Positions 14,349-62,972 of a stretch of DNA of 64,000 nucleotides are shown piece by piece; positions within the stretch are counted from its first letter, which is position 1, and every line of letters begins with the position of its first letter. A program made the position numbers and the translations under genes. This DNA is from Eledone cirrhosa (lineage: Eukaryota): contig OZ024740.1 of the NCBI GenBank assembly GCA_964016885.1, positions 215,264,001 to 215,328,000 on the forward strand. Direction: 5' to 3'. The notes under the pieces are model-generated. The model was not told the origin of the DNA. It saw only the letters and a program-made list of their open reading frames with translations, and searched no databases.

Positions 14349-17300
14349 TTATGAAGTCACTGCATTGGGGGCTTTTTGGGCAGCTAACTGAGCCTGAACT
14401 TTAATCTGTAATAATTCCATCACAACTAGAAAAAGAAAGCATTCAACATTCATTTATTGAAGTATGTAACATTTTACACATACAGTCTCTATTTATGGAT
14501 ATATATATGTACAGGGTGCAGCAAAAATACCTCCTACACCACATTTTAATGGTAGGTTTTTCTGCTACATCCTGCTACCAAATATGAATTGCTTTTTGAT
14601 CGAAGAGATATAAATCAAAGCTTCTTCCTTTAACATCTCTCTCCAATAAACTGTAACATTCCTTTTTCAGCTAGACAACCTGCGATATTACACATATTAA
14701 AACAAAACCTGATTAAGTTTTACTTTTAACTAGTTTGCCTTCAACTTCGATGATCAATAATGTAGATTTTTTTTTTTTTTTTTGTCTTGATCCTCTTGGC
14801 TAAAGTACTGAATTCTTAATTTTTTTACTATTTAAATTAAAGCCTGTCCCAAGCCCAGGCATTAAGCAACTGAGTGTATCAGACTTCCCCTGGACAAGAT
14901 GCAGGGTTAACTCCCAGCTGATATTCATTTTCAGCTGAATGTACTGGAGTAACATAGCATGAAGTCACACCACCAACATAGAATAAAGCACTATGCTCAA
15001 GAACATAACACACCACCCGGTCCAGAAGTCAAACTTAAGATATTAGGACCATCATTCCAACACATTAACCACAAGGCCATGTGCAAAAATCCAAATACTA
15101 TGTACACATGTTTAGATGGTGCAGTTTTGAAATTCTCATGAGTGAAGAATAAACTTATAAAATTTTAATATTTTGATAATTACATAATAGTTTTATACCA
15201 ATTTCTGACCTTTTTGAAGGCCATTGTTCATTTAAAACACAAGTAAAATCTGTATTTTAGAACCTCATTTACATAGAATTTGAAGCTGGTGAAATACTTA
15301 CTGACCTTGATTATAAGTTTAGCCTAATTTGCAATTGATTTTTTTTTTTTTTGTCATATTTCTCGGCATACAGTAATTATATTTTAACTAATTTTGAAAA
15401 TGTCATTCATTTCACTAAATTAAAAAAAAAGGTGAAATTATAATTTATTGTTATTACCAACATTGACAAAAGTATATTCCCATATAATGGAGGCACATGG
15501 GTTAGTGGTTAGAGCATTGGCCTTGCAATCGAAAGGTTGTGAGTTCAATTCTCAGACTGGGTGATGTGTTGTTTCCTTGAGCAAGACACTTTATTTCACA
15601 TTGCTCCAGTTTACTCAGCTGTAGAAATGAGATGATAGGGACTGGGGTCCCTATCATTCCACTGCAAAGTGGTCGTGGAGGTGCCACGGCAAAAAAGCAC
15701 TCAGCACTCACTGTGAATGAGGTTGGTGTTAGGAAGGGCATCCAGCTGTAGAAATCAAGCCAGTATCAGTTCCCGTCCCACCCTTGCAAGCAGGGAAAAG
15801 TGGACGTAAAATGAAATGATGGTGATGATGAATGAATAGCTCTTTACTATATGGAATGGACTTCTGTCACTTTTGACAATGTATGTTCCAAGATTTCACA
15901 GCCCTAGCATCACTCATTCATAGTCAGCCTATGAACTTTTCAGCCGACTCTCATATACTTTACTATATATGATGACAAAAAACTTACCTTGTTTCATCCT
16001 GAATTTGTCTTGTAAAAGAGGCTGCATCTTTTCTATCTGTTTCGTGATGTAATCTACTTTCCTCTTGAAAAAATTTTTGCTTGAGTCAACAGACTGAAAC
16101 ATTTAAAATTACCAAAATACCATTTTTTTAAATATCAGTAACAGTTTATATAATTAGTATATTATGGAAGTGCAATAATATATATATATATATATAATAG
16201 AATATAAAATTGTTTTATTCCCACAAAATGCAGATTGAATAAGGATTACTAGTCAAGAATTTTATATACATATAGTGTATATTATTTGTATATACTGATA
16301 ATATAGTAATAAGATTAGCTGTGTGTATCTGATCTAGAATAGGGACATCATCTCTCTGTATGTCATAAGCAGTGATTAAAAGGGTTGGTGCCAGGAAAAG
16401 TATCCAGTTGTGAAACCTTACATCAAAAAGGACCCCCATATCATGAGGCCCACCAAGCTAACCTCAGAAGGTGTTATGTTGTATATTAATAATAATTATG
16501 AATAACAGTAAATTTATTCATGAATCTACAATTTCAGTTTGAATTTGTTTTTTAATTGAAATAATGGTTTCTGATTTAGGCAGAAGGCCAACAATTTTCT
16601 AGGATGGGGAAACTCAATTACATCAACTCCAGTGCATAACTGGTACTTTATTTTATCGACCTCCCCATAAGGATGAAAGGCAAAGCTAACCTTCATGGGA
16701 TTTGAACTCAGAATGTAAAGGGACGTAACTATATGCCACAAAGCATATTGTCCGGCACTCTACCAATACAGCACCATCAACAATAAAAATAATACAAACC
16801 ATTTCAATATAATATCCAGTACCAATATCAACTAAACATTCTTCAACATTAGATAATTTCCCTGGAACATACATCTAGAAATAACATTAAGGAACATAAG
16901 ATCTCTTAATTTGGCTCATTTCTTCAATTAAATCCACTTGTTTTATGGACCACAAGCTTATTCATGTTCTAGTAATCAACACATTTCTACAATACTTCAA
17001 ACTGTTTAATGTTGGTGTCAATATAATGCACCCAGTACACTCTGTAATGTGGATGACAACCAAACATAGATGATATAGGGTAGAGAGGATTTTTCAGTCA
17101 TGCTGAGTGCACAACAACCTCTCTAGTGCTGGTGCCATAATAAAATGCACCCAGTACACTCTGTAAAGTGGTAGTGGTACTGCCACAATAAAATACTCCC
17201 AGTACACTTTGTAATGGGGTAGTGTTAGTGCCACAATAAAATACTCCCAGTACACTCTGTAAAGTGGTAGTGTTAGTGCCACAATAAAATACTCCCAGTA

Positions 17301-20300: not shown

Positions 20301-23300
20301 CACACTGTAAAGTGGTAGTGTTAGTGCCACAATAAAATACACCCAGTACACTCTGTAAAGTGGTAGTGTTAGTGCCACAATAAAATACTTCCAGTACACT
20401 CTGTAATGGGATAGTGTTAGTCCCACAATAAAATACTCCCAGTACACTCTGTAAAGTGGTAGTGTTAGTGCCACAATAAAATACTCCCAGTACACTCTGT
20501 AAAGTGGTAGTGTTAGTGCCACAATAAAATACACCCAGTACACACTGTAAAGTGGTAGTGTTAGTGCCACAATAAAATACATCCAGTACACCCTGTAATG
20601 GGGTAGTTAGTGCTACAATAAAATACTCCCAGTACACTCTGTAAAGTGGTAGTGTTAGTGCCACAATAAAATACACCCAGTACACTCTGTAAAGTGGTAG
20701 TGTTAGTGACACAATAAAATACTCCCAGTACACTTTGTAATGGGTTAGTGTTAGTGCCACAATAAAATACTCCCAGTACACTCTGTAATGGGGTAGTGTT
20801 AGTGTCACAATAAAATACTCCCTGTACACTTTGTAATGGGGTAGTGTTAGTGCCACAATAAAATACACCCAGTACACTCTGTAATGGGGTAGTGTTAGTG
20901 CCACAATAAAATACTCCCAGTACACTCTGTAATGGGGTAGTGTTAGTGCCACAATAAAATACTCCCAGTACACTCTGTAAAGTGGTAGTGTTAGTGTTAC
21001 AATAAAATACTCCCAGTACACTCTGTAAAGTGTTAGTGACACAATAAAATACACCCAGTACACTCTGTAATGGGGTAGTGTTAGTGCCACAATAAAATAC
21101 TCCCAGTACACTCTGTAAAGTGGTAGTGTTAGTGCCACAATAAAATACTCCCAGTACACTCTGTAAAGTGGTAGTGTTAGTGCCACAATAAAATACATCC
21201 AGTACACTTTGTAATGGGGTAGTGTTAGTGCCACAATAAAATACTCCCAGTACACTCTGTAAAGTGGTAGTGTTAGTCCCACAATAAAATACTCCCAGTA
21301 CACTTTGTAATGGGGTAGTGTTAGTGCCACAATAAAATACTCCCAGTACACTCTGTAAAGTGGTAGTGTTAGTCCCACAATAAAATACTCCCAGTACACT
21401 TTGTAATGGGGTAGTGTTAGTGCCACAATAAAATACATCCAGTACACCCTGTAATGGGGTAGTGTTAGTGCCACAATAAAATACACCCAGTACACACTGT
21501 AAAGTGGTAGTGTTAGTGCCACAATAAAATACTCCCAGTACACTTTGTAATGGGGTAGTGTTAGTGCCACAATAAAATACACCCAGTACACTCTGTAAAG
21601 TGGTAGTGTTAGTGCCACAATAAAATACACCCAGTACACTCTGTAATGGAGTAGTGTTAGTGCCACAATAAAATACATCCAGTACACTCTGTAATGGGGT
21701 AGTGTTAGTGCCACAATAAAATACACCCAGTACACTCATGTCATTGGTGTTATGGATGGTATCCCCTGCCCCATAGAAACCATGGCATATTATGGAATGT
21801 GTAAATAAGTTGGTTCTCCACCCACATTGTGTCAAACCATGATGACCCATCCAACCCATGTCAGCATATGATGACTTTAATTAGTTTAATAAAAATATAT
21901 AGCATATGGAGACTTTTTCATGGAATATTATTTTAATCCGCTCTCTCAATAATTTAACAGTGGTAGTGGTGGTAGTAGTACAAAGGGTTAGTAAATCTTA
22001 AGGGTTAAAATGTCTCCCAACCCCACCACCAAAAAATAGGAGGGGAGTGCTGAAAAACATATTTTTCCCACTTCATTAAACAACAATTAATGGTGAAAAG
22101 AGAATCAAAGTATAAAACAACTGTTTGGGGAATACATGTAAAGGTTCATATTGGCAGACCTATCAAACCCTCATATAAAATACAGAAATGTAATAAAAGG
22201 ATACAGAGCCTGTAAGAGGGACAAGAATATCATTATCAAGATTTTGCTTGGTGACTTGACTAAGGCATTCTTGAGATTCACTAAATTTGGTTTGGGCTAC
22301 TTTTAACTGGTTTAATGAGAGGGTAAGAAATTCAATTTCCTGAAATAAACAAACAAAAAATACAAAATATAAGCGAAGGAATTATGTTTGGAACACGGCA
22401 AGTGAAGTTTAGAATAGAAAATAGAAGCTTTGCTGTAATATTTTTTAATCTAATATAGTCTAATAACGGGGCTTATAAACCCACTGAATGATAAAAGATG
22501 GATATCAGCACACATGGGAGAAGTGTGGGTTCAACTCCCATGTGTGCTGATATCCATCTTTTACCATTCACTCAGTTTATTTGCCCTATTATTAGACTGT
22601 ATAATAGTCAAAAATATTACAGCAAAAGCTTCTATTTCTATTACAAAATATAAGATATATTTATTGCAGCAATGTCTGTTGTTGACAGTAATATAATTTA
22701 TTTCACACACACACACACATACATATCTATATATCTAAAACAGAGAATGTCTGTCTGTCCCCCTAAAACTCGAGAACCACCCAACCGATTTTTTTCAAAC
22801 TTTACACATGTAATACTTATGGTCATGTGAGTGTTTTGAGCAAAAAATATTTCAAATTTTTAATGCCGTAGGGACAGCATTAGGCGAAAAACCACATATT
22901 TTAGGCTTTAAAGGCTTTTTTGAGGCATAACGGAACAATAATCCAGGCGATTTCTTCAAATTTGCATTACTTATGTCGTTTAAAGTGTTTTGAACAAAAA
23001 AGATTTTCTTTTTGCCCCAGGAATACATTAGGCGAAAAACCAATTTTTTTAAGCATTTTGTTTGCATTAGGGCCTGTAACTCGAGAAGTACCCAACCGAT
23101 TTTTTTAAAACTTTGCATATGCATTACTTGTTTCACAAATTTTCTTGACTGAAAAAGATTTCAAATTTTTGCCTGGGGACCGTATTGTTTAGCATTTTGG
23201 TTGTGTTAGGGCCTGTAACCTTAAAAGTATCCAACTAAATTCCTTCATGCTCTCCACCACTGCAGTCCCACGTGCTTACTGCTCTGTAACTATTGCTTTC

Positions 23301-30319: not shown

Positions 30320-32070
30320 AGTCATTGAGCCTCACCAAGGTTCTTTTTTTTCGTACTTAGGAATTATTTGTCAATCCCTAAATTGTATTTCCTCAGAGTT
30401 AGTCCCTTTTACAAATGCTCGTCGTCTCTCCAACGCTTTGACGACCTAATATTCAGTAAACTTGAGGGTCTGGTCAATGTCCGACTCCCCCTCCAGTCCC
30501 GCGACCAAGCTGCCTTGCCCAAACGGTTTGGAGGTCTCGGTCTGTGTAATTGCACATCTTTATCTCTACCTTACTTTCTTTCCTCCATCCACACTTGCTC
30601 CCCTTTAGTGGGTGACATCCTCTCCTTTCCTACATGGATTAGTTCCTCCAGGAAGATGGATGAAGCTTTACTGCAGTGGAGAGAGCTGGGTTTTTCAGTC
30701 CCAGTTACTGATGAGGATGGATGGAAGCAGAAAGTATGGGACAATCTGCATTCGAGGGAAATTTTCAATTCTCTCTTTGATCACTCAAATCAATTTTCTA
30801 GGTGTCGCTTACTTTCTGTAAGCACAAAGTTCTCGGGTGACTGGATTGATGCCCTGCCTGTGGCTAACATTGGTAGCCTTCTCAGTCAGGACGAACTCCG
30901 CAGCTCCATTGCACTTCCAGTGGGAACCAATGCCTGTTGGAGTCTGAGATGTCGCTGTGGTAGGGCCCTCGACCCCACAGGCCTACATGGTTTGTAATAT
31001 AGTTCATAAATTTTATAAAGAGCATCTCATATAAAACAACAACATGAGACTACGTAAATTGTAAGATATTTATTTCCTAAGATGAGATGTGTAAGTTATT
31101 AGTAACTTTCCAAATTTTCTTTTTGTTCAATCGCATATTCAAAACAAAAATTTGAAGAACGTTTTGAAAAGGAAAAGAAGTAGGAAAATAATTTTAAAAA
31201 TTGATACTTTTATGCGTATGACCATATATCTGACTATAAATATTTATTTATAAATGGATATCTGTAGATATGTAAAACAAATGTATAAACAACATGAAGA
31301 ACTCAGTTCTCTTCTGGACGAAGTAGCTAGAATGTTCTGGAATTCACAACAAAATCATTTTTGTTCCTAATTCATATTGGGAAGGAGCCTGGATGCAGCT
31401 GGCTTCCCATCACAATTGGAGCTAGCATACCTCGACCGCCGAGACGGCAAGCGCCCCGATGGAATTACCCTCTTCCCATTCGAAGGAGGTTGATCATTCA
31501 TCTGGGATGCCACATGTTGCGACACGTTCTCCGCCTCTAACTTAATAGCTTCGTCCACAAACCCCAGTACTGTGGCCCGCAATGCAGGGGACATTAAGAT
31601 AAGCAAATGCCGGGGCTTGTCCGGGCGCTTCCTCTTCGCACCAATCACCGTCGAGACCTCGGACCTACTCGAACCTCGTACTGCTGAGCTCCTCCACAAG
31701 ATCATCAGCCCATTTGAGGAAGAAGCCCTGAGAAGTTGGGTCGTTGTTGCAGCAGGTGTCGCTGGTCATTGTCCAAAGAAATGCCTTTGCAGTTTTGTTC
31801 ATGGGGTGCAGCCCTAACACCACTCCGCCATAGAGCCCATCACTTTCCTTTTCTTCCATGGCCCAAGAGTCCTTGCATTTTCCTTCCGTTTCCTCTCATT
31901 TATGGCATTTATAGTCCTTTCCCATACACCCAGATCTGCCCTTCTTTGCCTCTCCCCATTCATTTCATTACTTATTTTTGTTTTTCATATTTCCATCATT
32001 GTGTAACTTCTTTATGCAAAATATAGTTGACATAACTATTTGTAATGTTATTTATACAACTGTAAATAAA
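30320..32070 (+). mobile_element. CRE-like (restriction-like endonuclease) non-LTR retrotransposon, 3' half, interrupted at ~30997-31370
   Basis: QAALPKRFGGLGL, CRCGRALDPTGLHG (zinc knuckle), RRDGKRPDGITLFPF..WDATCCDTF and FLFAPITVET (REL endonuclease motifs); T-rich 3' UTR ending aataaaa. Confidence 0.75.
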
Positions 32071-34399: not shown

Positions 34400-35470
<1,071 letters not shown>

Positions 35471-38289
35471 TTATATCTATTCTGTATGACATCTTCACGT
35501 ATCCTTTAAACAATGATAAATATTGTTAATCCATCTGAAGTAAACAATTCTTTAAAGTCAATGTCAACTGATATTCTGAAATAGAGAAACAGTAAAACAT
35601 GTAGTTAAAGAGTAGAGTCAATGGTGGAAATTTTACATTTCTATATTAATAAACTGTAGATATAACCATTTGTCTGAAAATTGAACTTATCCAATATGGC
35701 CTTTGTAGATGACACGACAAAAAGCACCCAACACACACTATAAATGTGGTTGGCATTAGGAAGGGCATCCAGCCATAGAAACCTAGCCAGAAATAGTTCT
35801 ATATGAACAAGACCCAACCTGTCTAACCCATGCTAGCATAGAAAATGGACATTAAACAATGATGATGATGATAATATAAAAAAGGAAGGTTTTTTTTTAA
35901 TGTCCCACACAGGTAAACATATAAGGAAAAGAATTTGAAAATGCAACTGAAATCTTTTAAGAATATTTATTTACTTTACTGGTTTCACAGTTCTTATGAT
36001 TATCAAAAGTAAAATTGAGATGGAGGGTTTGTATTTCTGCAGTGGTGTGTCTTGCATCAGATATCGCAAACAATTTTTCTGAACATAAAATGTCTTGGCT
36101 GACGAACAGTGTCTCGATTAATGAACCCGCAAGTCAGCAGAAACAGTTGTCAACAGGCTGGGAGTATCGGCAGGAAAGCATCACTTGCAGTGTAGTTAGT
36201 TACTATGGTAATATCTATCTGCCTTTCACACACAGTCTCTCTCTTTCTCTCTCTGTATTTCTCTCTCAACATTTTGTATGGGGAAAATAGTTTCAGTTTA
36301 CAAACATTTAAGATGACAAACAGCCTTCAGGAATGAAATAAGTTTATGAACCAAGGTTCCACTGTACACACACACACATATATATATATATATAGCTGAC
36401 TAAACACATACATGCTCCCCCCCCCCCCCAAATGTCCTTTTCTTAATTTTGTCTATCTTTCTATTTTTTATTTTATCTCTATCTTCTGGTGAAAGACTAA
36501 TATCTGAAACACTAAGACACTTTTCCTACTATATCAAGCATTAAACTAATATATATCTTCATTGTACTGTATTGTTTATCTCTTTTACATGTTCCATCTG
36601 ACATACTAAGGCCATGCTGGGGCACCTCCATGTCTACGTTATGACTATATATATATATCATAACATTACATCTGTTTTCTATGTTAGCATGGGTTGGACA
36701 TGTCGAAAGAACCAGAAAATACTTTAGCCTCCAACAATTTCTGATCCTCTAAATTTGTTCAGGAGAGACCCACAATGGAGGTAGTGCTGCCACATTTGAG
36801 ACGGTGCTGCTGTTACACATACATCCTAGGCCACATTGGTATAAAGTCACTGACAGACATGCTCCAGTCTCTGGCCACATTTCTACCACCACTATAATGG
36901 CCTATGCTCCTCAGTTTTGGCTGAATTCCCGCCACCTACACTCAAGTCTCATCTGTATTACACTTCATCACCAATATTATGTCTAACCGCACTAACTGCT
37001 ATGTCCAGTCCTTCTTTCCCGAGAATGTAATTCCTTTGCTGCATTTGTCTTTCATGAAGATGTCGACTTGAAACAATTTAAACTGAATATCAACAGCTTC
37101 AATCTCATCGATCTCGAAAGCTGCAAGGTTCATAGACACAACACCTCCCTCCACTAAAAAAAAGAAAAACGAGAAACTTTTTGTCCCGTAAGAGCGGTTC
37201 GACAAAGAGTGGTCTATACAGTAAGTTTAAAGTTTGTCTCGAGTCCAGAGGCTTATCCTGGCTTCCATGGCGTGAAACAACTGAGAGTACAAGACTACCC
37301 AGTGGACAGGACACCAGTCCATCACAGAGTTAAATCCCCAGCTATTGCATTTTCAGCTGAGTATACTGGAGCAACATGAAATAAAGTGTTTTGCTCAAGA
37401 ACACAACACACAACCCAGCCCAGGAATCGAACCCAAGACATTATGATCGTAAGTCGAACACCCTTACCAAATGTAAAAAAATAAGTACTAAGGTCAATTT
37501 TATCGACTATATCCAGTCTCCATCATGATCGCAGTCTAATGAAGTTATATCAGTATAAGTGTGTGTTAATTGCTAATTTCAGACTGTATGATGGCTTATT
37601 AGCATCTAAATCTCTGAATTACCTATGTTCAACAAGCGTTGTCACGTTTACAAGGTAGAAATAAAGATAAATGGTGCCGAAACAAGGTATCAAAGTGACG
37701 TTAAACAACACAAACTTTGTCTTTGTGTGAGGAATAACTGAAATTGACATGATATATTGAAAGTAATAAAGCAATATCTTTAATTAAGTGAAAGTTCTTT
37801 CTTCATTTAAAAAAAATCTTACGAAACTCTAATACAAAGAGATGTAGGTAAAAAAAAACACACGTTGTACAATATAAGTGTTTATATCAATAATTGTTTC
37901 TACTTTTGGCACAAGGCCAGCAATTATTCAGTACATTACTGGTACTTTATTTTATCGACCCCGTAAGGATGAAAGGCAAAGTAATACTTATACACTAATA
38001 TAGACAGCTATAATACGAACTTGAATATTGGCAGTTTCAAAAGAACTTCTAGATTTTACAGAAAATGTTGATTTACATTTTTCAGTTCAACATAAAAATG
38101 AATGATGAATGCTATAGATATTTCTTTGCACAGTTAATTAACAATCAATTATATTTAATTCTATACTAACATGCCGCTAATTAAGAAAACGATAACAGGA
38201 AGTTTTAGCAAATAATACCAGGGGAGGTAACTTAATAAAGGGCAATAACCTAGAATGTACTTTTTTTTAAAATATAAAATATTTACTTC

Positions 38290-41367: not shown

Positions 41368-42348
41368 TCAAATGTGTATCTGTTTGTGGGTTTTTAAGTG
41401 ACTCTTATATATAAATGATTTATCACATATTTCACAACGATAGGGTCTTTCTCCGGTGTGGCTACGCTTGTGGAGTGTAAGCTGACAATTTTCAATGAAA
41501 GATTTTCCACATATTTCACAATGAAACGGTTTTTCTCCTGTATGGCGTTTTATGTGCTTTGTTAAAAGATAGTTAGTGATAAATGATTTACTACATAATA
41601 TACAGTGGAATGGTTTCTCTCCAGAATGTATAATTTTGTGAACTACAAGGCCAGAATTATCAGAGAATGATTTGCCACATAAATCACACTGATAGGGTTT
41701 TTCTCCGGTGTGAGTTCGTTTGTGGACTGTAAGTTTGGAATTTTCATTGAAAGATTTACCACATATTTGACAGTGGTAGGGTTTTTCTCCAGTGTGTATT
41801 CTTTTGTGTCTTGTTAAGGGGCTGTTAGTGATAAATGATTTCCCACATATATCACATTGGAACGGTTTCTCTCCAGTGTGTGTTCGTTTGTGAACTAACA
41901 GACTTGAATTTTCAGAGAATGATTTGCCACATATTTCACAATTATATGGTTTTTCTCCAGTGTGACTCCGTATATGGATAACAAGATGAGAACTACGATA
42001 GAATGATTTCCCACAAACTTCACAATGAAACTGTTTTTCTCCATTGTGTTTAATTTTGTGTCTTTTTAAATTACTATTACCAGCAAATGATATCTCACAT
42101 ATTTCACAGTGAAACGGTTTCTCTCCAGAGTGTGTTCTTTTATGCCTTATTAAATTACTGTTGTCCATAAAATATCTCCCACATATTTCACAATGATAGA
42201 GTTTTTTCTGACTGTATGTAAACACTTCATGATCTGGCAAGAATGTTTCACAAGGTAAAGGTTTCTCATCACTATATGACCGTGAAACAGAATCTATATT
42301 GTTAAAAACAGTTGTGTTGGAAGTGTCCAAGTGGTTGACGTTCTCCAT
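41368..42348 (-). CDS. C2H2 zinc-finger protein ZNF-A, 326 aa, 10 tandem fingers, single coding exon
   Basis: Uninterrupted ORF from MENVNHLDTSN (start shared with both paralogs); 10 C-x2-C-x12-H-x3-H fingers with TGEKP linkers. The upstream 52 aa of the track ORF are Helitron/UTR sequence. Confidence 0.9.
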   Translation of the reverse strand: MENVNHLDTSNTTVFNNIDSVSRSYSDEKPLPCETFLPDHEVFTYSQKKLYHCEICGRYFMDNSNLIRHKRTHSGEKPFHCEICEISFAGNSNLKRHKIKHNGEKQFHCEVCGKSFYRSSHLVIHIRSHTGEKPYNCEICGKSFSENSSLLVHKRTHTGEKPFQCDICGKSFITNSPLTRHKRIHTGEKPYHCQICGKSFNENSKLTVHKRTHTGEKPYQCDLCGKSFSDNSGLVVHKIIHSGEKPFHCILCSKSFITNYLLTKHIKRHTGEKPFHCEICGKSFIENCQLTLHKRSHTGERPYRCEICDKSFIYKSHLKTHKQIHI

Positions 42349-42364
42349 ATTAATTCTCAGGAAA

Positions 42365-45300
42365 TCTATATATAATATAAAAGAGAGATGCTTCTTGGTT
42401 GGTTTAATCACACGAAAATTACACACACGTACATAGACACACACACACACATCTAAAGAGAGAGAGAGAGAGTGAGACATGCCGTTATACAGGGAGGGGT
42501 ACAATTAAAGTGTTAGATATTTAGATAGAGAGAGAGAGAATGGCAACAAACGATGATTTACACACACACACACACATCGAAAGAGAGAAAAAGACACAGG
42601 GGGAGAGTGAGATATGCCGTTATACAGAGGTACAATTAAAGTGTTGGATATTCAGATAGAGAGAGAATGGCAACGAACTCTGGTTTACACACACACACAG
42701 ACATATATATATATATATATATATATATAGGAAAAGAGTCAGGACCCCGACGGCTGAGCTCCGGCCTGAGCCCAGCTGTCGTGGTCCTGACTCTTTTCCT
42801 ATTACCCACTCTACTACCCTAAGTATCGAGTACTCTGGTGCGTTATGGTCCACCTGGTATCTTACCACTACCTGAGCATTCTTAATTGTTTCGTGGCCAG
42901 CGTCTCCATTGCATCAGTGTGTGTGTGTCAGTGTGTCGTTACACAATAGATCAAAGTATCAGTAGGTTTGTCGTTTTACAGCAGTCATTGAAAGTTAGAT
43001 GATACTAACTACAACACACAGAGTACACAGAGCATACAACGCTCTTCAGTATCCTTTGATTTTTTGGAGAGGTCAGGATAGATACAATTTTGCCTTAAGA
43101 CAAGTAAACCCCAGTACAGGCGAGGAAACTAATAAATCGGTCAGTTGCAAAATTTTTTATTCATTTCACTTCGTGGTAAGAGATTGCTTTAAACATATAC
43201 TAAGAATGGGAAGACTTACAAGCCAATTAATGGTTGATCCCGCCGGGGTTAACTTTGCCTTTCATCCTTACGGGGTCGATAAAATAAAGTACCAGTAATG
43301 TACTGGGTATTTGCTGGCCTTGTGCCAAAAGTAGAAACAATTAATTAAAAACAGAGCCATACATCCATTTGAGAGATGCCATTATAACTGATGGAATGAA
43401 TCCTTCCAGTGTTGGTCAGCCAGTCATTCTGCCATCTAGCTTCACAGGCAGTTCACGCTATATGGCTGAGCGCACATAAGATGCCATGGCATATGTAAGA
43501 AAATTTGGATGTCCAGATCTTTTCATATCATTTACATGCAATCCTATGTGGCCAGAAATTCAAAATGAACTGTTTCAACACCAATATGCAAAAGATAGAC
43601 ATGACATCATCGCCAGAGTTTTTAATGAGAAACAAACGATATTGATGTGGCTGCTAAAAGATGGACAAATCTTTGGCAAACTAAGATGTTGCCTTTACAC
43701 TATTGAATGGCAGAAGAGAGGTCTTCCTCATTCCCATATGCTAATTTGGTGTTCAGACCACATTCACTCAGATCAAATTGATAAAATCATAAGCACTGAA
43801 TTGCTCGATCCTGATGAAGACCCAGAACTATTTGCCATTATCTCAAAACAAATTATACATGGTCCATGTGGCAGTATCAACCCTAAGTGTGTGTGAATGG
43901 GAAATAAATGTGAAAAAAGATATCCAAGGCATTTTCAACAAGAAACCATAACTGGTGATGACGGATATCCTCAATACAGACGGAGAAGCCCTCACTGTGG
44001 TGGAAAAACTGTGATTATCAAGATACGAGGTCAAGACGTTCAGGTTGGTAACAATTGGGTCGTTCCCTACAATCCTCTCCTCTGCAAAATTCTTATGCTC
44101 ACATCAGTTGTGAGTACCACGCATCAGTAAAATCAATCAGGTATGTTTGTAAATATGTCAACAAAGGTATGGCAACTTTTACTATTGGTGGCGATAACGA
44201 ATTGAATGAAGTTAAAACATACCTAACAGGGAGATATATTTCTAGCAATGAAGCCATATGGAGAATCTTCGGTTTTGACATACACAATAGACACCCAGCG
44301 GTAGTGAACCTTGCAGTCCATTTGGAAAATGGTCAGAGGGTATATTACACTGAAGAAAATGCACAATTGATTGCTGCGTTTCCTCCAGACACAACGCTCA
44401 CTGCTTTTTTAAAGCTTTGTGGAGAAGATGCCTTTGCTAAAACCTTACTTTATCATGAGGTTCCCACATTCTACACATGGAATAAAAAGAAATGGAGCCG
44501 ACGAAAGATAGGCAATCATGTGGCTGGCTATCAAGACATCAAAGCAAGTGGTGCAATAGGAAGAGTTTACACGGTACATCCTAGACATAGGGAATGTTTC
44601 CATTACTCCTTGACACTGTTAGAGGGCCAACATCATTTGAAAATATCCAAATTGTACATTCAACTCCCTGTACAATGTATGCTGAAGAATGTAAATTACT
44701 TGGCATACTTGAAGACGAGGAATATTGTAAAAAGACATTGGAAGGGGCAGCTGCCACTCAAATGCCTAAAAAGCTTTGACAACACTTTGCTGTAATGCTC
44801 ACTACGTACAATATTTCAGATCTCTTGAGTCTCTGGGAAAACTATAAGAAAGACTTGTCTCAAGATATTGCACAGGATCAAACTTCAAAACACTGGCATT
44901 AATGTAGATTTTTCTGCACCTATCTATAATGAAGCTCTGACAGAAATTAACAATCACCTGAGGGAAATTGGTTGGTCCCTTAAAGATTACGGTTTACCAG
45001 AACCTGAGGACACAGTTGCATACTTTATTGCACAGGATATATTAAAGGTGATGAATTATGACATCAACAAGCTTGCACAATATGTCAATGAAAATGAAGA
45101 AAAGCTGATTGAAGATCAAAGAATTGCTTATGAAAAACTATTGACCAGTATCAACCAGAATGAAGGAGGCCTTTACTTTTTAGATGCTCCAGGAGGAACT
45201 GGTAAAACCTTCATAATAAATCTCATATTGGCAAAAGTAAGGCAGTGGAAGCAAATTGCTTTGGCTGTTGCATCAAGTGGTATTGCTGCTACCTTACTTG

Positions 45301-46589
45301 ATGGAGGCAAAACAGCACACTCAATGTTCAAGTTGCCATTGAATGTCACAAGAGAAGAGTCTCCTTCGTGCAATATCAAAACGAACACACCAAAAGCAAA
45401 GCTTTTTGAGAAGTTCTCTATGATCATATGGGCCACAATGGCGCATAGAAAGTTATTTGTGGCTCTGGACATTCTTTTAGAGACATTAGAGATATAATGA
45501 AATCATGGGAGAAGTAATGATGGTGCTTGCTGGTGACTTCAGATAAATTCTCCCAGTCGTTCCTAAAGGCACGAGAGCTGATATTGTAAACGCTTGCCTC
45601 CCCGTTGTTCCTAAAGGCACGTGAGCTGATATTGTAAACACTTAAAGTCTCAACTATATGGCAACAAGTCCAGCAATTACCCTTGAGGACCAACATAAGA
45701 GTGCAGTTATACAATGATACAGAAATTGATACTTTTGCAAAACAGCTAATTAAACTGTGTGATGGAAATCTACAAGATGAAAATAGAGAAGTCAACCTTC
45801 CATTTGGAAATGTCTGTAATACAACGAACTAATTGATCAAGTATTTCAAAATGTTGCCTCAAATTATATCAATCAATCATGGCTGTTTGAGCAAGTGATT
45901 TTAGTGTAAAACAATAATATGGTAAATCAGATAAACCAATGCCTACTGGATACGGTCCCAGGGGAGGTTCATACATTTGTCTTCATTGACAAGATTGAAA
46001 AGGATGATGAAGTTGTTAATTATCCTGTAGGGTTCCTTAATAGCCTGGAGCTTCCTGGACTTCCTCCACTCAATTTAACGCTAAAGATTGGAACTCCCAT
46101 CATCCTTTTGAGAAACCTGGACCCACCATGTCTATACAATGGCACACACTTAACAGTGAAGCGGATGATGAAACATCTCCTAGAGGTCACTATTCTTGGA
46201 GGCAATCATCACGGCAAAAATTCATTTATTCCAAAAATTCCACTTATCCCTTCTTCTACCGAGCTGCCATTCAGATTCTCAAGACTTCAGTTCCCTGTTA
46301 GAGCCAGTTTTGCTATGACCATAAAGAAAGCTCAGGGTCAGAGTCTCAAAGTTGTAGGATTGAATCTGAGAGAATAAGTTTTTACCCATGGACAGTTATA
46401 TCTTGATTGTTCACAAGTGGGAACATCTAGAAATCTTCATATACTATGCACGAATCTGGAAGTTTTTTCACTTTTTTTGTCACACACACACCACGGTCTC
46501 GCCTCATACTGTAAACCAGACAATGCATCCAATGCAGTCGTTTTCTCTTACAAACTGTCCACCCGGGCGAAGCCGGGTACCTCATCTAG
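42365..46589 (+). mobile_element. Helitron with both termini and a degraded Rep/Pif1-helicase ORF
   Basis: 5' TC; 3' hairpin cccgg-gcgaag-ccggg then CTAG; A|T target. Rep motifs PDLFISFTCNPMWPEI, EWQKRGLPHSH, YVCKYVNKG; helicase motifs FLDAPGGTGKTF, ASSGIAATLLDGGKTAHS, FAMTIKKAQGQSL; many stops and frameshifts. Confidence 0.95.
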
Positions 46590-47929
46590 TTCTTAAAATA
46601 TGAAAGTCTGTGACTGTAATTTCTTATGGTTCATGCTATTGTCTTCGATGTCACAGGACTGTTTATATACTACAATAAGATTAGATGGAATATATTATAT
46701 CATAGTACAGTTTTTAGTCATTAATATCACAGGACTGTTTATATGATATAATATTAGATGGAGTATATTATATTATGATAGTTTGTTAGTCTTTGATATC
46801 ACAGGACTGTTTATATGATATAATTGTTTCTACTTTTGGCACAAGGCCAGCAATTTACCAGTATATTACTGGTACTTTATTTTATCGACCCCGTAAGGAT
46901 GAAAGGCAAAGTTGACCTCGGCAGGATTCGAACTCACAGAGTATGATCTATTGTTCAGTTTTTTGTCTTACATATCATGGGAGTATGTTTACATATATAG
47001 ACAATATGTATTGTAAATATATTTTCTACTTACAATAGATGGTGTGTGGGGTGCGCCTGTATATGTGTGCTATAACGATAATCCGAATTCTGCAATCCTT
47101 AGATTTGATATCCAGCTGAAAAGGGAAGAAGTTGCTAGGAAAGTTAATTGCTAATTAGTTGGTGATTAAAACTTATTTCCCGCTGTCCTGCAAAATGTGG
47201 AACAACCAATTCACGATGTAACGTAACTTGTGATGAAATATTTAATCCTGAAGGTGATGTATTACTGACTCTATGCTATCCATTAACGTTCACCTTAACA
47301 TGAGAAAATGACTACACATGACATAACTAGATTAATTAAAACTATCAAGATATTAACTTGACGGTGTTGTTGACAATTATCTCCTCCAGTAAATACTACC
47401 GGTGACTTAAGTTAAAAGTCTCTAATATAAAAATCAATCTTTCCTCATAGTCCTACTGTACCGCTCTGACCAGAGACTAAACAACATTTATAAGAAATAT
47501 CCTTGCCACCGAAATAAATAAATAAAAACATACATAAAAATCAAAAATTCATTATATATAATTTTGAAACCTAAACCATAAAACCTCCATATCCTTTCTC
47601 CAAAGAAAAACAAAACAAAAACAAACAAAACTTAAATCAACTCAGAACTATTGTAATTTATTATAAAAAGTCTAATTATTGTCTATATTAGACTTCAGAT
47701 TTAGGACACAGCATGGCCCATTACTGAATAGGGATGTAAGTTATGAAAGACTTATTCCTCAATGTAGGAAAAAACATTTTCACAAAGAAGCTATGAGTAA
47801 TACTTAGCTTCAGATATACACTTAACTCCACAAACCTTTTAGGAAATATATACCAAGACTCACATCCTTTACTCTCCTTGGATTCAGGGTTTTACTGTAT
47901 ATTAGATAAGTTTTTATTAAATAATATAT

Positions 47930-48395: not shown

Positions 48396-48769
48396 ATATT
48401 TTTATTGATTTTTCCAACAACAGATTTCTGTTGAGGAATTATCCAGTCACAGGCCTGGAATCCTAACTGTTGAGGATTTATCCAAACACAGGCCTGGATT
48501 CCTAAATGTTGAGGAGTTATTCAATCAAAGGCCTAGTTTCCTAACTGTTTAACAATTCATGAATCACTCATTTCCATAGCTATCAAAATCAACAAGGATA
48601 TTAATTCAAGTTCATTCTGAATCAATAGAACATAATTTTTCCTTCAGTAGTCAAGAAGTTTAATTTAACTTCCAAGCTGTCAAGTTTACTTGCAATAGTC
48701 AGTCTTATCTGACAAAATGTTTTTGAGCACAGATTACTAACTGAATCTATCAAGCAAAAAATTCCTTTG

Positions 48770-49320
48770 TTTGCTAAATGATGGCAAGCGCCCCGATGGA
48801 ATTACCTTCTTCTCAGTCGAAGGAAATAAATCCCTCAAATCGGATGTAACATGCTGTGACACATTCTCCACCTCTAACTTTGTCACTTCAGCCACAAATT
48901 CCATTACCGCAGCTTGCAATGCAGAAAACAGGAAGATAAGCAAATACCACAGCTTGTCTGGCCACTTCCTCTTTGCACAGGTCGCTGTTGAGACCTCAGG
49001 AATCCTTTGACCCCATACAGTTAACCTTCTCTGCAAAATTGGAATGACAGCAGCCCATCTGAGGAAGGAATCCCACGAGGTGGGGTGACTGTTGCAGTGT
49101 GTCGCTAACCATTTTCTGTGGAAATACCTTTATCATTTTGTCTTATGGGTGCAGCTGAAACACCACACTGACCTAGGTGTAGAGTCTGTCTCTCTCTTCC
49201 CTTCCCCCTTTCTTTCTATAATAGTCCTTTCTCTTTCCCTCCTTCTCCTCTCATTTATGACATTTATAGTCCTTCCCAATATTGCTTTCTTTTTCTGTAC
49301 ATTTTATTGAACAACATTCC
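48770..49320 (+). mobile_element. CRE-like LINE endonuclease region and 3' UTR
   Basis: DGKRPDGITFF..DVTCCDTFSTSN..FLFAQVAVETSG; homologous to 31440-32000. Confidence 0.75.
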
Positions 49321-53398: not shown

Positions 53399-53552
53399 TA
53401 TTTTAATAAAAGAGCTTCTATCCAACAAAAGCATATTTGTATACTACAAGATATACATTAAAAAAATATATTTTTCTGACATTACACTATAATATTCTCC
53501 AACATTTACTTGGTGGTGGACAATAAGTTTGCAAGAATAAGATTTTTCATGT

Positions 53553-54490
53553 TTATGTTTCACAGTTAACAGTCTCTCCTCCAATGTGTATCAGTTGGTG
53601 TGTTTTTAGTTGACCATTAGTGATAAATGATTTATCACATATTTCACAATGATAAGGTTTTGCTCCAGTGTGTCTACGTTTATGGACCGTTAGCTTAGAA
53701 TTTTCAATGAAAGATTTTCCACATATTTCACAATGAAATGGTTTTTCTCCAGTGTGTATTCTGTTGTGTCTTGTTAAGAGACTGTTACTGATAAATGATT
53801 TACCACATATTTCACATTGGAATGGTTTTTCTCCAGTGTGTATGTTTTTGTGAACTAACAAACTTGAATTATCAGAGAATGATTTGGCACATATTCCACA
53901 ATGATAGGGTTTTTCTCCAGTGTGAGTACGTTTGTGGAGTGTAAGTTTAGAATTCTCAATGAAAGATTTACCACATATTTGACATTGATACGGTTTTATT
54001 CCAGTATGTATCTGTGTATGTTTTGTTAAGAGACTGTTACAAACAAAAGATTTACCACATATTTCACAGTGGAAAGGTCTCTCTCTCCAGTATGTATTCT
54101 TTTGTGAACTACAAGCCTAGAATTACCAGAAAATGATGTCCCACATATTTCACAATGATAAGGTTTTTCTCCAGTGTGACTACGTATGTGGATAACAAGA
54201 TGAGAACTCTGGTTGAATGATTTATTACAGACTTCACACTGAAACTGTTTTTCTCCAGTGTGTATTCGTTTATGCCTTGTTAAATTACTGCTATTGGCAA
54301 ATGATTTCCCACATATTTCACAATGGTAGACTTTTTCTTGACCGTGTATTTCTTTGTGTGTGAAAATTTCATGTTCTGAAGAGAATGTTTCACTAGGTAA
54401 AGGTTTCTTATCACTATATGTCAGTGAAACAAAGTCTATATTGTTAAAAACAGTTGTATTAGAAATGTCCAAGTGTTTAACATTCTCCAT
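53553..54490 (-). pseudogene. C2H2 zinc-finger gene ZNF-B, 9 fingers, one +2 frameshift at ~54078-54087 (recent pseudogene or assembly error)
   Basis: MENVKHLDISN start. The linker after finger 3 reads ggagagagagacct (GA run 2 nt too long); removing 2 nt gives a continuous 311-aa ORF. Confidence 0.8.
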
Positions 54491-54836
54491 ATTAATTCTC
54501 AGGAAATTATTAAAACATGAATGTCTGTAAATGTGTCTGTGTATATACATGTATATACATGCATCAGACCCGACAACCCCTAAACCCAAACGGGGTGTAC
54601 CATGAAAAAAAGTGCCCCAAACGGGGAGAAATGAGGTAAAATGGAAAGATTTTACAAATTGAAAGCTATACCCATTTTCACAAGAGAAGACATCTTTCAC
54701 CAGCTCCAAAGTGGATGGGAATCTCCCTGTCTGACGTATTTGTGTGTGTGTGACCACAATTACAGGCAGTTCGCCATTTTAAGCACTCGATGCTGTTACG
54801 AAGGTCCGTCTCGAGTTGCACTGTATTACAGATGAG

Positions 54837-56682
54837 GGCACTACAACGCTATTAGCTGTCAGTCCAAGCAGCCGATGGAAACAGGCGAAGGTGACGTCAC
54901 TCGTCAAACATCGTTTCTTTCCGTTCTTTCCGTATTACTACCGTATTACTACCACGCGTAAGTGGAGTTTTAACGCATTTTTTGAAGAGAGAGAGAGAGG
55001 GGGGGGGACTTAAAAGGGTCAAATTAGAAAACAAATAGAGGAGAGAGAGGGAAGACTTAAAAGGGCCAAATTAGAAAACAAATAGAAAAAAACAAATAGA
55101 AAACAAGTCATGGTTATAAAGCATATCGATGTAAGTGGAGTTGCTTAAATGAAAATATAGGTGGCCCTTAAAAGGGCCAAATTAGAAAACAAATTTAAGT
55201 TAATTAGAAAACAAGTCATGGTTATCAATGTAGAAAACAAGTCATTCATAAATTTAAGTTTTATAATCAAATTTTTTTTCATAGGTGGCCAAAAAGTTAA
55301 TTAGAAAACAAGTCATGGTTATCAAATAAATTTGATTTATTCATTTATATTTTCATTATTCACCAACCTTATTCAAAAGCTTGTTTAGAAACATTTTTTT
55401 CACCAACCTTATTCAAATGCATGGAATCAGATGACGGATATGTTCTAATAACTTTTGGAAAATTTCTCCTTTAAATTCATACCGCCACATGAATTCAATG
55501 AGGTGGGTTTGAAGCAAAATTCTGGCTGTCCCGTTTTCCCTTTTATTCCTATTTTTTACGTGTTTCCACAAGCATTCTATGTGATTCGTTGTGGCAAATG
55601 TTATTGGATCAACAAAATTGATCGAATGGTTCACCGTCAAATGTCGATAACCTAGCTGATCGATCTTATTATAGGAACGCCATAGATCAGATATTATGAT
55701 TGTCTCTGGCAATATACGATTCTGTATAATGGTTAAAAGTGTCTCCGCTGCTACTAAAATACATCTCTACTGCTACTAAAATACATCTTCTGGTACCTCT
55801 TTCCAAGGCACCCAAAACCCATTGTGTTGTCACAGAATGGCCACGATTGTATTTCCTTCTCACGAAGGCGCTTTTATCAATCTCGACAAGCTTAATGTTT
55901 TGTGCCACATAGTACTCTGCACAAACATCACGGCAAAAATTTCGCCAATCTGCTACGGCCACATTAGCGATACGACATTCCTCTGAAATCTTCTTGGCTA
56001 AATCTTCTTTTGCCCCAAAATATAATATATCAACTATCTGTTCACACTTCAAATTGCTATTTTCTAAAAATGTGCCTTTTCTAATAGAAACCTGTTTTCT
56101 ACAAGGTCTTTTACATGACCAGATAATCCCATCTGACACATTTTGTTTCGCTATTTCAAACATATGTTGACCACATGAAGGGCAGACCTTTTGTGTATTC
56201 AGAAGTCCGTGAATTTTCAACCAATTGACGGTATCTGCTGTAGTAGCGGTAGCGATGGTTAATTCCCTTAACACTTGGATATATTATAGAATTCATTTTT
56301 CAACTTGCAGATGCGTGTATTATCACAAAGTGAAGATTAAAGTTTATTTATTTACACGTGGTGTTGGTGATGATTGTTGCTGATTGGTGGGGATTGTCTC
56401 CATGGGGACTGTCGCTTGTCTCCATGGGTATTGTATCCATGCTTTTGAATAGGTTGGTGGAAATAATTTGTTTTCTAAACATTTCTTCATAAATATATAG
56501 GGTTGGTGACAAAAATTTGATAACCATAATTTGGCCCTTTTAAGGGCCACCTATATTTTCATTTAAGTTAACTCCACTGTTGGTGAAAATGACTTGTTTT
56601 TTATATTGATAACCATAACTATGAAAATATGTGACGTCATTCGTCAACGTAACCCTACTTTCACTTCTGACAGCTAATACCA
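54837..56682 (-). mobile_element. Merlin-superfamily DNA transposon (IS1595/ISXO2-like DDE transposase, frameshifted; coding ~55413-56296)
   Basis: N-terminal CPSC..WSC zinc ribbon, VEIDKSAF.RRKYNRG..WVLGALER, IISDLWRSY..H.TVNHS.NFVDP.T..TTNHIECLW. Inverted terminal match tattagctgtcag / ctgacagctaata plus inverted subterminal repeats (ggtggcccttaaaagggccaaatt). Confidence 0.88.
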
Positions 56683-57769
56683 TGAACTGTATTTACAGAT
56701 GGTGTGTGGGGTGCAGCTATATGTGTAACAATAATCCGAATTCTGCAATTTTTAGATTTGATATCTAACTGAAAAGTCAAGAAGTTGTCAGGAAATTTAA
56801 TTGTTAATTAGTTGTTAATTAAAATATATTTCACTGTCCTGTGGGAAACAACCAATTCACGATGTAACGTAATTTATGAAATGAAATATTTACACATGGA
56901 GGTAATGTAACTCTGATCCTGAAACATGCAGTTCAGCTTATGATATGTATAAACATTAACGTTAATTTTAACGTGAGATAATTACTACACACGATAAAAT
57001 TAGATTCATTAAAACTATCAAAATAATAAATACACGGTGTCATAAAAAATGTTTTCCTTCTCTAAATCATACCGGTGACTTAACTTAAATGTCCTTAATA
57101 TAAAAAATATACGTTATATTTATCCACAATTGTATAAATAACATTACAAAATAGACATAAATCATCATCATCAATATCACCGTTTTACGTCCATTCTTCC
57201 CCGCTAGCATGTGTTAGATGGGTTATCCTGTTGTGGGCAATGCCAGGTCAAGTGACCATGTCTTGCTCATACGGAACTGGTTTGGGCTTGATTTCTACTG
57301 CTGGATGCCCTTCGTAACACCAACCTCATTTACAGTGAATACTGGGTGTTTTTTACCGCGGCGCCTACACGACCACTTTACAGTGTGGGCTGGGTGCTTT
57401 TTTGTCTTGACACCTCCACGACCACTTTGCAATGGGAGGGGCTGGGGGCATATTGTCTATATGCTTCAACTTCGGCTTGTTCCCGTGGGAAGTTGGGTCT
57501 TCTGTATTACTGCGTAACGCCAGATGTCTCAGTCATGTGTCATCATCTTTGAGAGGTGCAATTGGGCAAGGGCCACTTTTATCACCTCATCCCAGGTCTT
57601 CTTGGGTCTCCCCACTCCAAGGCTTCCATCGACTTTTAGTGCTTTGCCCTTTTTATGCAGCGGTCCTCCTTCATACGCATCACATGTCCATACCAACGCA
57701 ACCTGCTCTCCTGTATTTAGCATTTGATTCTTCTTATGCGTAGTCTCTCTCTCAAATAATATATATGAT

Positions 57770-58399: not shown

Positions 58400-60925
58400 G
58401 CTTGCCTCCAACATCATTTTCCTCCAACCGAGTCCCACTGTCAGAGTCAATGCTGATCACCCGGTTGCCCCCTCTACCCCTATGATTAATCTACCCTCAC
58501 CGTCTTCTCATCTGAATCCTAATTCTAAGGTCGACTCCTCTGATGTATCCAATTTTCCACCAAATTGCATTCTCTGATCCCGTCCAAGTCGATACCTAAA
58601 GACAATCGCATGTTGCTCCTGCCGTAAACTACTACAGGAGCTGCGTTGGCATTACTAAGGTTCAAGCTGAAAGTTTCTCAAACTGGACGTGAAACCAATG
58701 CTACTTCAGCTCCGATTCACTTTGCAGTTCAGAACCTAACTCTGACGTTCAGATTTCCGTTGAGGATTTTGCCGCTAAGCTCCGGGGCTTGTCTAAGTTG
58801 AAACTCATCAACAGAATCCCAAAGGGAACTCAGACCAGTTTCGCCCATACTCTCTCCAAGCTGCTGAAGAATGTCTGTCTATCCAACAACATTTAGGATT
58901 GGCAGTAACTATTCTTGTTCCCCTTAGTCTCTCTCCACATGTCCTACGTGAAATCTGGATCCCTCACATCTTCCCTAAAGCGGCAGTTCGAGTTGTTTGA
59001 TTCAACTGCTACTCATCTCAGGTTGGTGATCAACTCGGTTCCAATCAAATGGACGATCACAGAACTTAAAGAAGGCCGTCAACGCCAATTCAATGAATTT
59101 GACATTAAAAGGGCTGTTCGCCTCCTCTCTTCTCTGTCATCTCTCACCCAATGCACTATATATTCACTCAACCAACTGAGAGTGAGACATTCTCCAGCTC
59201 CTCCGGATGACCACTTACACTAGTCTGATCCACCATGCCATTTACAATCTGTATTTACCACATTCATCCTCTGGAGCAGAGATTGATGGTCTTCGACCTC
59301 AGCATCCCAAGGATGGTGTCTCCTGGTCGGCCGGCGATACCGGTCTAGAGCTCTTGGAGAACATCGCCCATTTCGTCAACCTGTTCTCATCCGAGAATGT
59401 CCTCCTTTATATTCTTCCCCTGTTATTTAGGGCTAAACTGTTTGGCCTTACAAAGCCCAACGGTGATCTCCACCCCAAAGCAGTTGGGTGTACACTACGA
59501 CGGCTCATTGATAATTTTCTCCCCTCATTAAATTACATCGGTGATTTAAGTTAAAAGCCTCAACTTTTAAAAGATCTCGAAGTCATTGAGCCTCACCAAG
59601 GATTTTTTTTTCGTACTTAGGAATTATTTGTCAATCCCTAAGTTATTGTATTTTCTCAGAGTTAGTCCCTCTTACAAATTCTCGTCGTCTCTCCAACGCT
59701 TTGACGACCTAATATTCAGTAAACTTGAGGGTCTGGTCAATGTCCGACTCCCCCTCCAGAGTCTCTCGACCAAGCTGCCTTGCCCAAACGGTTCGGAGGT
59801 CTCGGTCTGTGTAATTGCACATCTTTATCTCTACCTTACTTTCTTTCCTCCATCCACACTTGCTCCCCTTTAGTGGGTGACATCCTCTCCTTTCCTACAT
59901 GGACTAGTTCCTCCAGGAAGATGGATGAAGCTTTATTGCAGTGGAGAGAGCTGGGTTTGTCAGTCCCAGTTACTGATGAGGATGGATGGAAGCAGAAAGT
60001 ATGGGACAATCTGCATTCGAGGGAAATTTTTAACTCTCTTTAATCATTCTGATCAATTTTCTAGGTGCCGCTTACTTTCTGCAAGCAGAAAGTTCTCGGG
60101 GGACTGGATTGAACCCCTGCTTGTGGCCAACATTGGTGGTCTTTTCAGTCAGGACGAGCTCCTCTTCTCCATTGCACTCAGAGTAGAAGCTAATGTCTGT
60201 TGGGTGGTGATGGTGGTGGTGGTGGTGTGTGTGTGTGTGTGTGGGGGGGGGGGGGGGGTTCTGAGATGTCGACTCCACAGGCCCCCATGGTTTGGCCTGC
60301 CGCCTGAATGTTACCCACCACACCGAGCTAGACCTGTTCATTAAATTATGGATTATCCAAAAGTGATGGGAAGAGACCAGGCGGCCTTATCCTTACTCCC
60401 TGGGTAAGAGGCAGGTGTCTCATCTTGGACGTCAAAGTCAGTGACTCTTTTGCTCCCTTCCACATCATGGACGCCACGGTGAATGGAGGGGGGGGGGGGG
60501 GGTCACTACTTCCGTTGCCGAACGGAATAAAATGCGGAATACCTACATTTATCTAATAATAATTGTTTCTACTTTAGGCACAAGGCCAGCAATTACCCAG
60601 TGCATTACTGGTACTTTATTTTATCGACCCCGTAAGGATGAAAGGCAAAGTCAACCTCGGCGGGATTTGAACTCAGATCGTAAAGGGACGTAACTATGCT
60701 GGAAAGCATGGCGTCCGACCCTCTACCGATAATAATAATCTTTTTCTAACCTGTGGCGTTCGAAACGTTTGGTAGAGTTGGGTCGCTGACAGCGAAGTTC
60801 TTGTCGTTGGCGGCTCGCCTTACTGTGGTGTCAGTTGATGCCCCTGAGAGTGCCTGGTTGTTTCAGTCCCTTAGCCTCGCCATTACCCGTGGTAATGTTG
60901 CGAACATGTTGGCTTGCCTCAAAAA
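58400..60925 (+). mobile_element. Degraded, internally deleted/chimeric CRE-like LINE
   Basis: GIDGLRPQH-like, LFGLTKPNGDLHPKAVGCTLRRL, LPKRFGGLGL, RPGGLILTPWVRGRCLILDV; central RT motifs not seen; family A SINE nested at 60558-60730. Confidence 0.75.
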
Positions 60926-62059: not shown

Positions 62060-62940
62060 ACTTTTAACGTAAGTCACCGGTGTTATTTAACGAAGAACAA
62101 AATTGTCAACGACACCGCCTACTTATTATCTTTCTAACTGTAATTAATCTAATTATATCATGTGTAGTAATTATTTTATGTTAAGTTGAAAGTTAATGTT
62201 TGTGGATAACATAGAGTGTTTCAGGATGGGTATATACCAACTTCCTTGGTAAATATTTCATTTCATAACAAATTACGTTACATCGCAGAACAGGAGGAAA
62301 TAGGTTTTAATCACTTCGTGTTCAAGTGCCGCCTTTCAAATCCGAAGTACTTGTGTGATCGATATCCCATTGTGCAATTGTATATTGTCATTTGTAAACA
62401 TTTTTTGATTTATTACTACAAACGAGCACACATATATACATGCATAAATTATTCGGGTACTTATATATATATTCCCCCCACATCCGTCATACACTGTCAT
62501 ATATTTACTTCTATTACAGCTGTGTTGGATGTTTCATTACAATTTATAGTACTCTACCAGAACTTCAGATATCTGCCATTTATGGATATTCTTTATTGTT
62601 TTAACCAACATAATATCCGTTAATCATATTCACAATCATTAATGTAAAAATAGAAGTTTTTTTCTCCACAATATGTGTGCCACTTGGAGAGGACCAAGTC
62701 AGCAACAAACAATCTATTGTAAGTAGAAAATATATCTACAATACATATTGTCTATATATGTAAACATACTCCCATGATATGTAAGACAAAAAACTGAATC
62801 ATCTAATCTTATATCATGTAAACAGTCTTGTGATATCAAAGACTAAAAAACGGTACCATAATATAATATACTTCATCTAATCTTATTATATGATATAAAC
62901 AGTCCTGTGATATCAAAGACAACAGCATGAACCATAAGAC
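62060..62940 (+). promoter_or_regulatory. Upstream non-coding block shared by the ZNF paralogs (putative promoter / 5'UTR exon and intron 62719-62938)
   Basis: Reverse-complement homology to 46610-47440 and 56695-57110; shared gtcaccgg and aattacgttacatcg motifs; donor GTAAGT at 62719 and acceptor AG at 62937-62938. Confidence 0.55.
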
Positions 62941-62972
62941 ATTCGTGTTTTAAGAATTTCCTGAGAATTAAT

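Follow-up and report, generated by a model that had tools for sequence, protein, structure and literature searches.

An old antisense Helitron in the 5′ leader of a zinc-finger gene of Eledone cirrhosa and the splice acceptors it may supply

How could a gene go on being expressed after a transposon of 4.2 kb has landed almost directly in front of its start codon? This question is raised by a 64,000-nucleotide stretch of the genome of Eledone cirrhosa (assembly GCA_964016885.1, contig OZ024740.1, forward-strand positions 215,264,001 to 215,328,000), which we call the window; positions below are counted from its first letter. The window sits on a large contig of a genome of 3.0 Gb. It contains four C2H2 zinc-finger arrays, namely a broken one near 34.5–35.1 kb and the genes ZNF-A, ZNF-B and ZNF-C (Table 1). 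An earlier note had placed a Helitron in the 5′ leader of ZNF-A and proposed that the terminus of the element serves as a splice acceptor, turning the insertion into an intron and keeping the gene functional.

Table 1. Features of the ZNF-A locus and its surroundings (window coordinates; a slash marks a candidate splice boundary)
Feature	Position	Strand	Remarks
ZNF-A	41368–42348	minus	
Native leader between Helitron and ATG	42349–42364	minus	16 nt; holds GAG (AG 42357–42356)
Helitron	42365–46589	plus	4,225 bp; TC...CTAG; target between A and T; antisense to ZNF-A
Terminal candidate acceptor TAG/A	42366–42367	minus	75% pyrimidine; 23-nt AG-free zone
Subterminal candidate acceptor TTTAG/A	42453–42454	minus	95% pyrimidine; 223-nt AG-free zone; CTAAC ~60 nt upstream
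In-frame upstream ATG inside Helitron	42478–42480	minus	would add 44 aa
Hairpin-ended repeat	42731–42868		138 bp, nested beside TA tract; separate repeat, as dispersed copies match query 1–139 only
Short dispersed repeat nested in Helitron	43239–43350		absent at the same place in aligned relatives
Rep/helicase ORF remnants	43400–46377	plus	
Helitron 3′ subterminal hairpin	46561–46578	plus	6-bp stem; z −1.5, weak alone; kept in relatives
Donor-like GAG/GTACCC	46579–46580	minus	weak; 9 nt inside Helitron 3′ end
Displaced native leader	46590–46607	minus	18 nt
Candidate native acceptor AG	46608–46609	minus	40% pyrimidines; rank 125/253
Block with candidate donor GTAAGT (GT 47033–47032)	46954–47047	minus	94 bp; 97% identical to paralog C
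Upstream module of dispersed family members	47100–47433	minus	~70% identity; CpG o/e 0.74 vs 0.42 in the window
ZNF-B	53.6–54.5 kb	minus	frameshifted; element also upstream
ZNF-C	from 62973	plus	

The insertion itself is as the note described it. The element starts with TC at 42365, ends with CTAG at 46589 and lies between A and T without a target duplication, 16 nt from the ZNF-A ATG, whose A is at 42348. After removal of the Helitron in silico, the rejoined flanks aligned with paralog C across the insertion point. The match to this empty site is exact near the junction and loose further out, so that the longer string quoted in the note does not match in full (there are mismatches away from the junction, and A contains additional bases). 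Because one 244-nt contig of sequencing run X1, which may come from the source DNA of the window, bridges the 5′ junction without any difference (positions 42205–42380, depth 10, 0 differences), we can reject misassembly as the origin of this junction. The three runs represent one sample from one study and 1 individual, and were compared over 42205–42380 only. Over this interval they look like DNA, with 16–17 million contigs and a flat depth of 7–13 per paralog, and their loose contig ends proved to be unspliced flanks of the loci L086 and L087. No splice-like joints were found in these DNA-like runs over 42205–42380, which says nothing for or against expression. A near-identical contig of an empty allele was likewise not found over the same interval, which proves nothing with a single individual, filtered records and no spanning piece in X2 and X3. 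An exact pattern combining a family 5′ end with a family start codon at most 30 nt away had 1 match in the genome, the ZNF-A locus.

Besides its termini and target, the element has the canonical hairpin, located some 11 nt before its 3′ terminus, and remnants of Rep and PIF1 helicase (Helitron_like_N, PIF1 and Pif1_2B domains); an insertion between A and T was also seen in 11/11 other two-ended family copies. Its open reading frame has decayed, as claimed: we counted 5 in-frame stops in 928 codons, some of which may be gap-edge effects, and 6 frameshifting indels in 2,807 aligned sites, 2 of them strictly private. The family majority, built from two alignments of 18 and 15 rows (those with at least 85% query coverage among the 20 loci retrieved in each search), has 0 stops in this frame and differs from the copy at 120 of the 2,807 sites, or about 4.3%. 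The tree of Helitron copies has a star shape in which the branch leading to this copy measures 0.035 and 0.051, and among the best 40 scored candidates the nearest relatives share 92% and 88% identity with it. Compared with the copies L148 and L152, the element lacks ~800 bp internally; it also carries two nested repeats, of which the one at 43239 is presumably SINE-like. Since private divergence, a star-like tree, the deletion and the nested repeats all argue for long residence, the Helitron has probably been at the ZNF-A site for most of the time represented by ~4% divergence; a decayed source copy, since lost, may make the insertion younger than this. Decay of CpG in 22 of 90 sites suggests methylation of the copy. 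Across copies, CpG decay ranged from 2/46 to 20/40 and failed to separate genic from other Helitron copies.

The ZNF-A frame is still open. It encodes 326 aa plus stop, with 10 C2H2 fingers in which the C-x2-C-x12-H-x3-H pattern, the linkers and all 40 Cys/His ligands are intact; 9 residues after the last finger are lost because a TGA replaces the Gly codon found in B and L087. To evaluate this preservation, we ran a neutral simulation with the CpG-aware mutation spectrum of the Helitron copy itself (4,000 runs per setting), leaving out the near-terminal stop. At full divergence, an open frame with 40 ligands survived in 0.025% and 0.1% of the runs under two settings, and the proportion rose to 2.2% at 55% and 15% at 25% of the divergence. 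Because neutral survival is only 0.03–2% under the likelier ages, we consider it likely that ZNF-A stayed under selection and functional after the insertion. The ZNF-A branch has a pN/pS of 0.36 (pS 0.19), mostly reflecting time before the insertion, and the frameshifted ZNF-B is similar (0.43, no ligand lost); thus, these codon tests do not show present function of ZNF-A. We found no support for the idea that conversion of the whole gene kept the frame intact, as there is no near twin able to repair it: the closest matches are 89% identical at the 5′ end and 78% at the 3′ end, and the fingers differ from their nearest counterparts at 5–18 of 69 nt.

In what it encodes, ZNF-A resembles lineage-expanded tandem C2H2 families as described in PMC10547256, which form young arrays with fast turnover and many broken members. 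Unlike those, it carries an N-terminal peptide of the MENVNHLD type: a search with the N-terminal 70 aa yielded orthologs in 0 of 2 candidates and no Pfam domain. The search with the whole protein likewise gave no ortholog; among the 120 matches listed were generic zinc-finger proteins of 34–57% identity.

An unspliced transcript reading through the Helitron would carry 4,259 nt with 88 ATGs and 3 AATAAA, which is implausible, so expression of ZNF-A needs either splicing or a new start. The GTAAGT that the note had named as a donor shared with ZNF-C is indeed found in C (at 62719) and also in L086, with GTATGT in L091 and L137, but GTA(A/T)GT occurs in only 5 of the 12 subfamily rows that have sequence there. 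In the block around it, only 3 of 94 sites are different in C, compared with ~10% nearby (P about 0.01–0.03), a similarity that may reflect constraint or conversion between inverted copies. The module upstream of this block, common to family members on many contigs, is likely to be a promoter or first exon; its distance to the ATG is highly variable, and the stretch between them would fit an intron or a loose leader. Counts exclude a 25-row upstream alignment in which subfamilies were mixed. As for the native acceptor that the note had proposed, 12 of the 13 subfamily rows that we selected by hand retain an AG aligned with 46609, but its sequence context is poor (Table 1). No AG position proved universal across the 48 loci of the ZNF family. 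With the donor in 5/12 rows only and no universal acceptor, the gene may lack a native 5′ intron. A further ~20 donor-like and several acceptor-like sites are scattered between 47033 and the ATG.

To compare candidate acceptors, we scored the 253 AGs on the gene strand between 47033 and the ZNF-A ATG by a crude measure, the pyrimidine share plus the −3 base, with no trained model. At the Helitron 5′ end the minus strand reads ...TATATAT(AG)ATTTCC, and the AG at 42367–42366, 17 nt before the ATG, does follow a pyrimidine-rich tract as the note had stated. This terminal TAG is acceptor-like, ranking 7th of the 253 and within the top 1.7% of AGs in the window; no branch-point motif was found for it. 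A stronger site had been overlooked: the subterminal TTTAG, 87 nt further into the Helitron, ranks first. The first AG after a branch point is usually the one used, and by this rule the subterminal site is favoured over the terminal one. Terminal TAGA is present in 27 of 30 other family 5′ ends; of the 24 family ends that the pattern caught, 17 have a subterminal YAG whose tract is at least 85% pyrimidine. Being family consensus, TAG/A is expected in any antisense insertion, and an adaptive origin of the terminal AG is ruled out.

From these features we arrive at a model in which an old Helitron lies antisense in the leader of a gene that would have been kept under selection since. The transcript would skip most of the 4.2 kb by joining an upstream donor, predicted to be GTAAGT at 47033 or a more distant site upstream of it, to an acceptor from the antisense 5′ end of the Helitron. 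We put the use of a Helitron-supplied acceptor at about an even chance. The subterminal TTTAG is the better acceptor on sequence and our tentative choice; its use would leave 88 Helitron nt in the leader, with two short out-of-frame uORFs (14 and 8 codons), both ending before the main ATG. The terminal TAG, which would give a clean 17-nt leader, is the weaker alternative, and the exact 47033-to-42365 junction is rather unlikely to be the main one. If the model is true, the gene would owe its rescue to lucky pre-adaptation, because both acceptors were inherited as family features. The note's proposal that the insertion was turned into an intron is weakened by the position of the 47033 donor, 444 nt beyond the element: with this donor, the intron would have been there already, and the Helitron would only have made it longer and moved its acceptor.

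A new start could serve ZNF-A instead of splicing. The Helitron 5′ region might act as an outward promoter, with transcripts starting a few hundred bases from the ATG and translation perhaps beginning at the in-frame ATG at 42480, in a frame that is open from 42504; the three AATAAA in the Helitron could then end transcripts arriving from upstream. Outward-reading promoters are described for maize Mutator (10.1101/2023.06.05.543741) and captured promoters for bat Helitrons (PMC4778049). In ZNF-A, however, such a promoter is predicted only, the CpG decay of the copy suggests methylation, and the upstream module is still recognisable, and we regard this explanation as unlikely. Similarly doubtful is the notion that the insertion silenced ZNF-A, leaving a pseudogene that has kept its frame by chance or whose Helitron is younger than its divergence implies. 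Broken members are common, as 18 of 49 family loci look broken when judged on the visible part (many others run off the fetched DNA). ZNF-B is frameshifted and likewise has an element upstream, ZNF-A has lost its 9 C-terminal residues, and simulated survival reaches 15% if no more than 25% of the divergence accumulated at this site. The far lower survival under the likelier ages argues against silencing, as does the lack of a close source copy among the best 40 scored candidates in each search.

Other ways of splicing at the Helitron borders can also be envisaged. The native acceptor could be followed by a 27-nt exon ending at the Helitron GAG/GT (46580), and the intron would then run to a Helitron acceptor; in such an introner-like removal both sites would come from the element, and a 10-nt scar would remain. 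GAG/GTA occurs in 22 of 28 antisense 3′ ends of the family, the ZNF-A copy included, and the terminal AG in 27 of 30 other 5′ ends. Both the donor and the native acceptor are weak, however, the exon is tiny, and a 10-nt scar would shift coding frames; moreover, 0 of 11 other two-ended copies lie in a recognisable coding frame, in a small sample without annotation in which insertions into UTRs are invisible. We therefore consider this arrangement very improbable. The broader proposition is that the antisense strand of this family generally provides splice sites at both ends, with a donor 9 nt from one terminus and, at the opposite end, two acceptors (the terminal TAG and a strong subterminal TAG behind a CT tract). 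Antisense copies would then splice themselves out of host leaders or be exonized into them genome-wide, and ZNF-A would be a case in which this kept a gene alive over ~4% neutral divergence; this seems to us improbable as well, if somewhat less so. Finally, the family acceptor could be the AG 7 nt before the ATG, with the Helitron inside the intron and supplying the tract only. This is the most conserved AG position (43 of 48 family loci), but it reads GAG in A, B and C and in A ranks 194th of 253, 8 nt behind the TAG, which makes its use extremely improbable.

The preferred model, a Helitron-supplied acceptor joined to an outside donor, has partial counterparts elsewhere. The maize element Ds1 is reportedly spliced from Adh1 and other exons through sites near its ends, as shown by RNA; alternative sites are often used, and a scar is left. 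ZNF-A would be alike in that an exonic or antisense insertion is tolerated through splice sites near the element ends; it differs in being an animal Helitron deduced from sequence alone, whereas Ds1 is a plant hAT element. Antisense exonization would be another comparable route. In PMC12130899, introners are transposons spliced out via encoded or co-opted sites, and Helitrons make up ~1% of the classified examples. The ZNF-A Helitron resembles them by lying in a transcription unit from which it is predicted to be spliced out. At its boundaries we found acceptor-like sequence at one end; the opposite end holds a weak donor, 9 nt from the terminus, and the stronger donor lies outside the element. 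Introners as described there are multi-copy, occur in unrelated genes and show similarity to both exon boundaries, whereas here we deal with one locus and with a leader. The exon traps of the bat HelibatN3 (PMC4778049) use a promoter and a donor that were captured from the host and lie in sense orientation. The ZNF-A model shares with them the joining of a host gene to a splice signal carried by a Helitron, here predicted, and differs in that the Helitron's own antisense terminal sequence would be the acceptor. In the open-access literature we found no report of an antisense Helitron end acting as an acceptor before a zinc-finger start codon; Dataset S2 of PMC12130899 may include Helitron introners from animals.

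Removal of transposons by splicing is already known, so the ZNF-A arrangement would be a further example of tolerance and involves no new mechanism. If confirmed, it would be a dated case in which a Helitron changed how the 5′ part of a young zinc-finger gene is spliced, with two paralogous empty sites as controls. If true, it would also extend the short list of splice sites derived from Helitrons by one from an animal, and it predicts a strand bias of this Helitron family inside genes.

Upstream of ZNF-B, one of the paralogs of the intact ten-finger gene ZNF-A, lies a nested DNA-transposon-like insertion with a broken transposase-like ORF (55413-56283), one piece of which had no match in a Pfam scan. 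An element separates the upstream module from the ATG in two of the three neighbouring ZNF paralogs in the window. The frameshift of ZNF-B falls at a GA dinucleotide run, 3′ of finger 3, and the complete set of zinc ligands is retained; because these are all intact, the break is either recent or a slip of the assembly.

The DNA upstream of ZNF-A is a mosaic, resembling the paralog ZNF-C in its gene-proximal part and ZNF-B farther up (46590-47433 compared with 56697-57106 and 62705-62943), a pattern suggestive of conversion, or of a deletion, between paralogs in inverted orientation.

Features of the window (-, reverse strand)
Feature	Position	Strand	Remarks
Minisatellite array, long	17094-21880		stop-free frames up to 1,096 codons
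Fourth C2H2 array	34460-35580	-	broken; different subfamily
Tandem repeat	46618-46824		unit ~76 bp; upstream of empty site; also in ZNF-C
ZNF-B	53550-54490	-	9 fingers; frameshifted
DNA-transposon-like insertion	54830-56690	-	nested; upstream of ZNF-B; inverted ends

A strong acceptor-like site, TTTCAG (35577-35576), lies upstream of the fourth C2H2 array. Fragments at 30329-30997, 31367-31817, 48737-49129 and 59186-60344 resemble non-LTR retrotransposon reverse transcriptase. Among the Helitron loci of the genome, L022, L031, L035, L038, L041, L043, L046, L047 and L049 are short non-autonomous copies, 626-775 bp long, whose termini are the same. On contig G000:C4, near-identical copies (L057-L060, L063 and L064) follow one another at intervals of about 40 kb.

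Loci L084-L140 form a large, dispersed ZNF family (on contigs G000:C27, C18, C8 and C12, for example), whose members share a ~330-bp upstream module and a MEDVKHLD-type N-terminal peptide of ~45-60 amino acids that matched nothing among proteins and Pfam families. The peptide may be an effector domain specific to the lineage, and the module may be a lineage-specific promoter.
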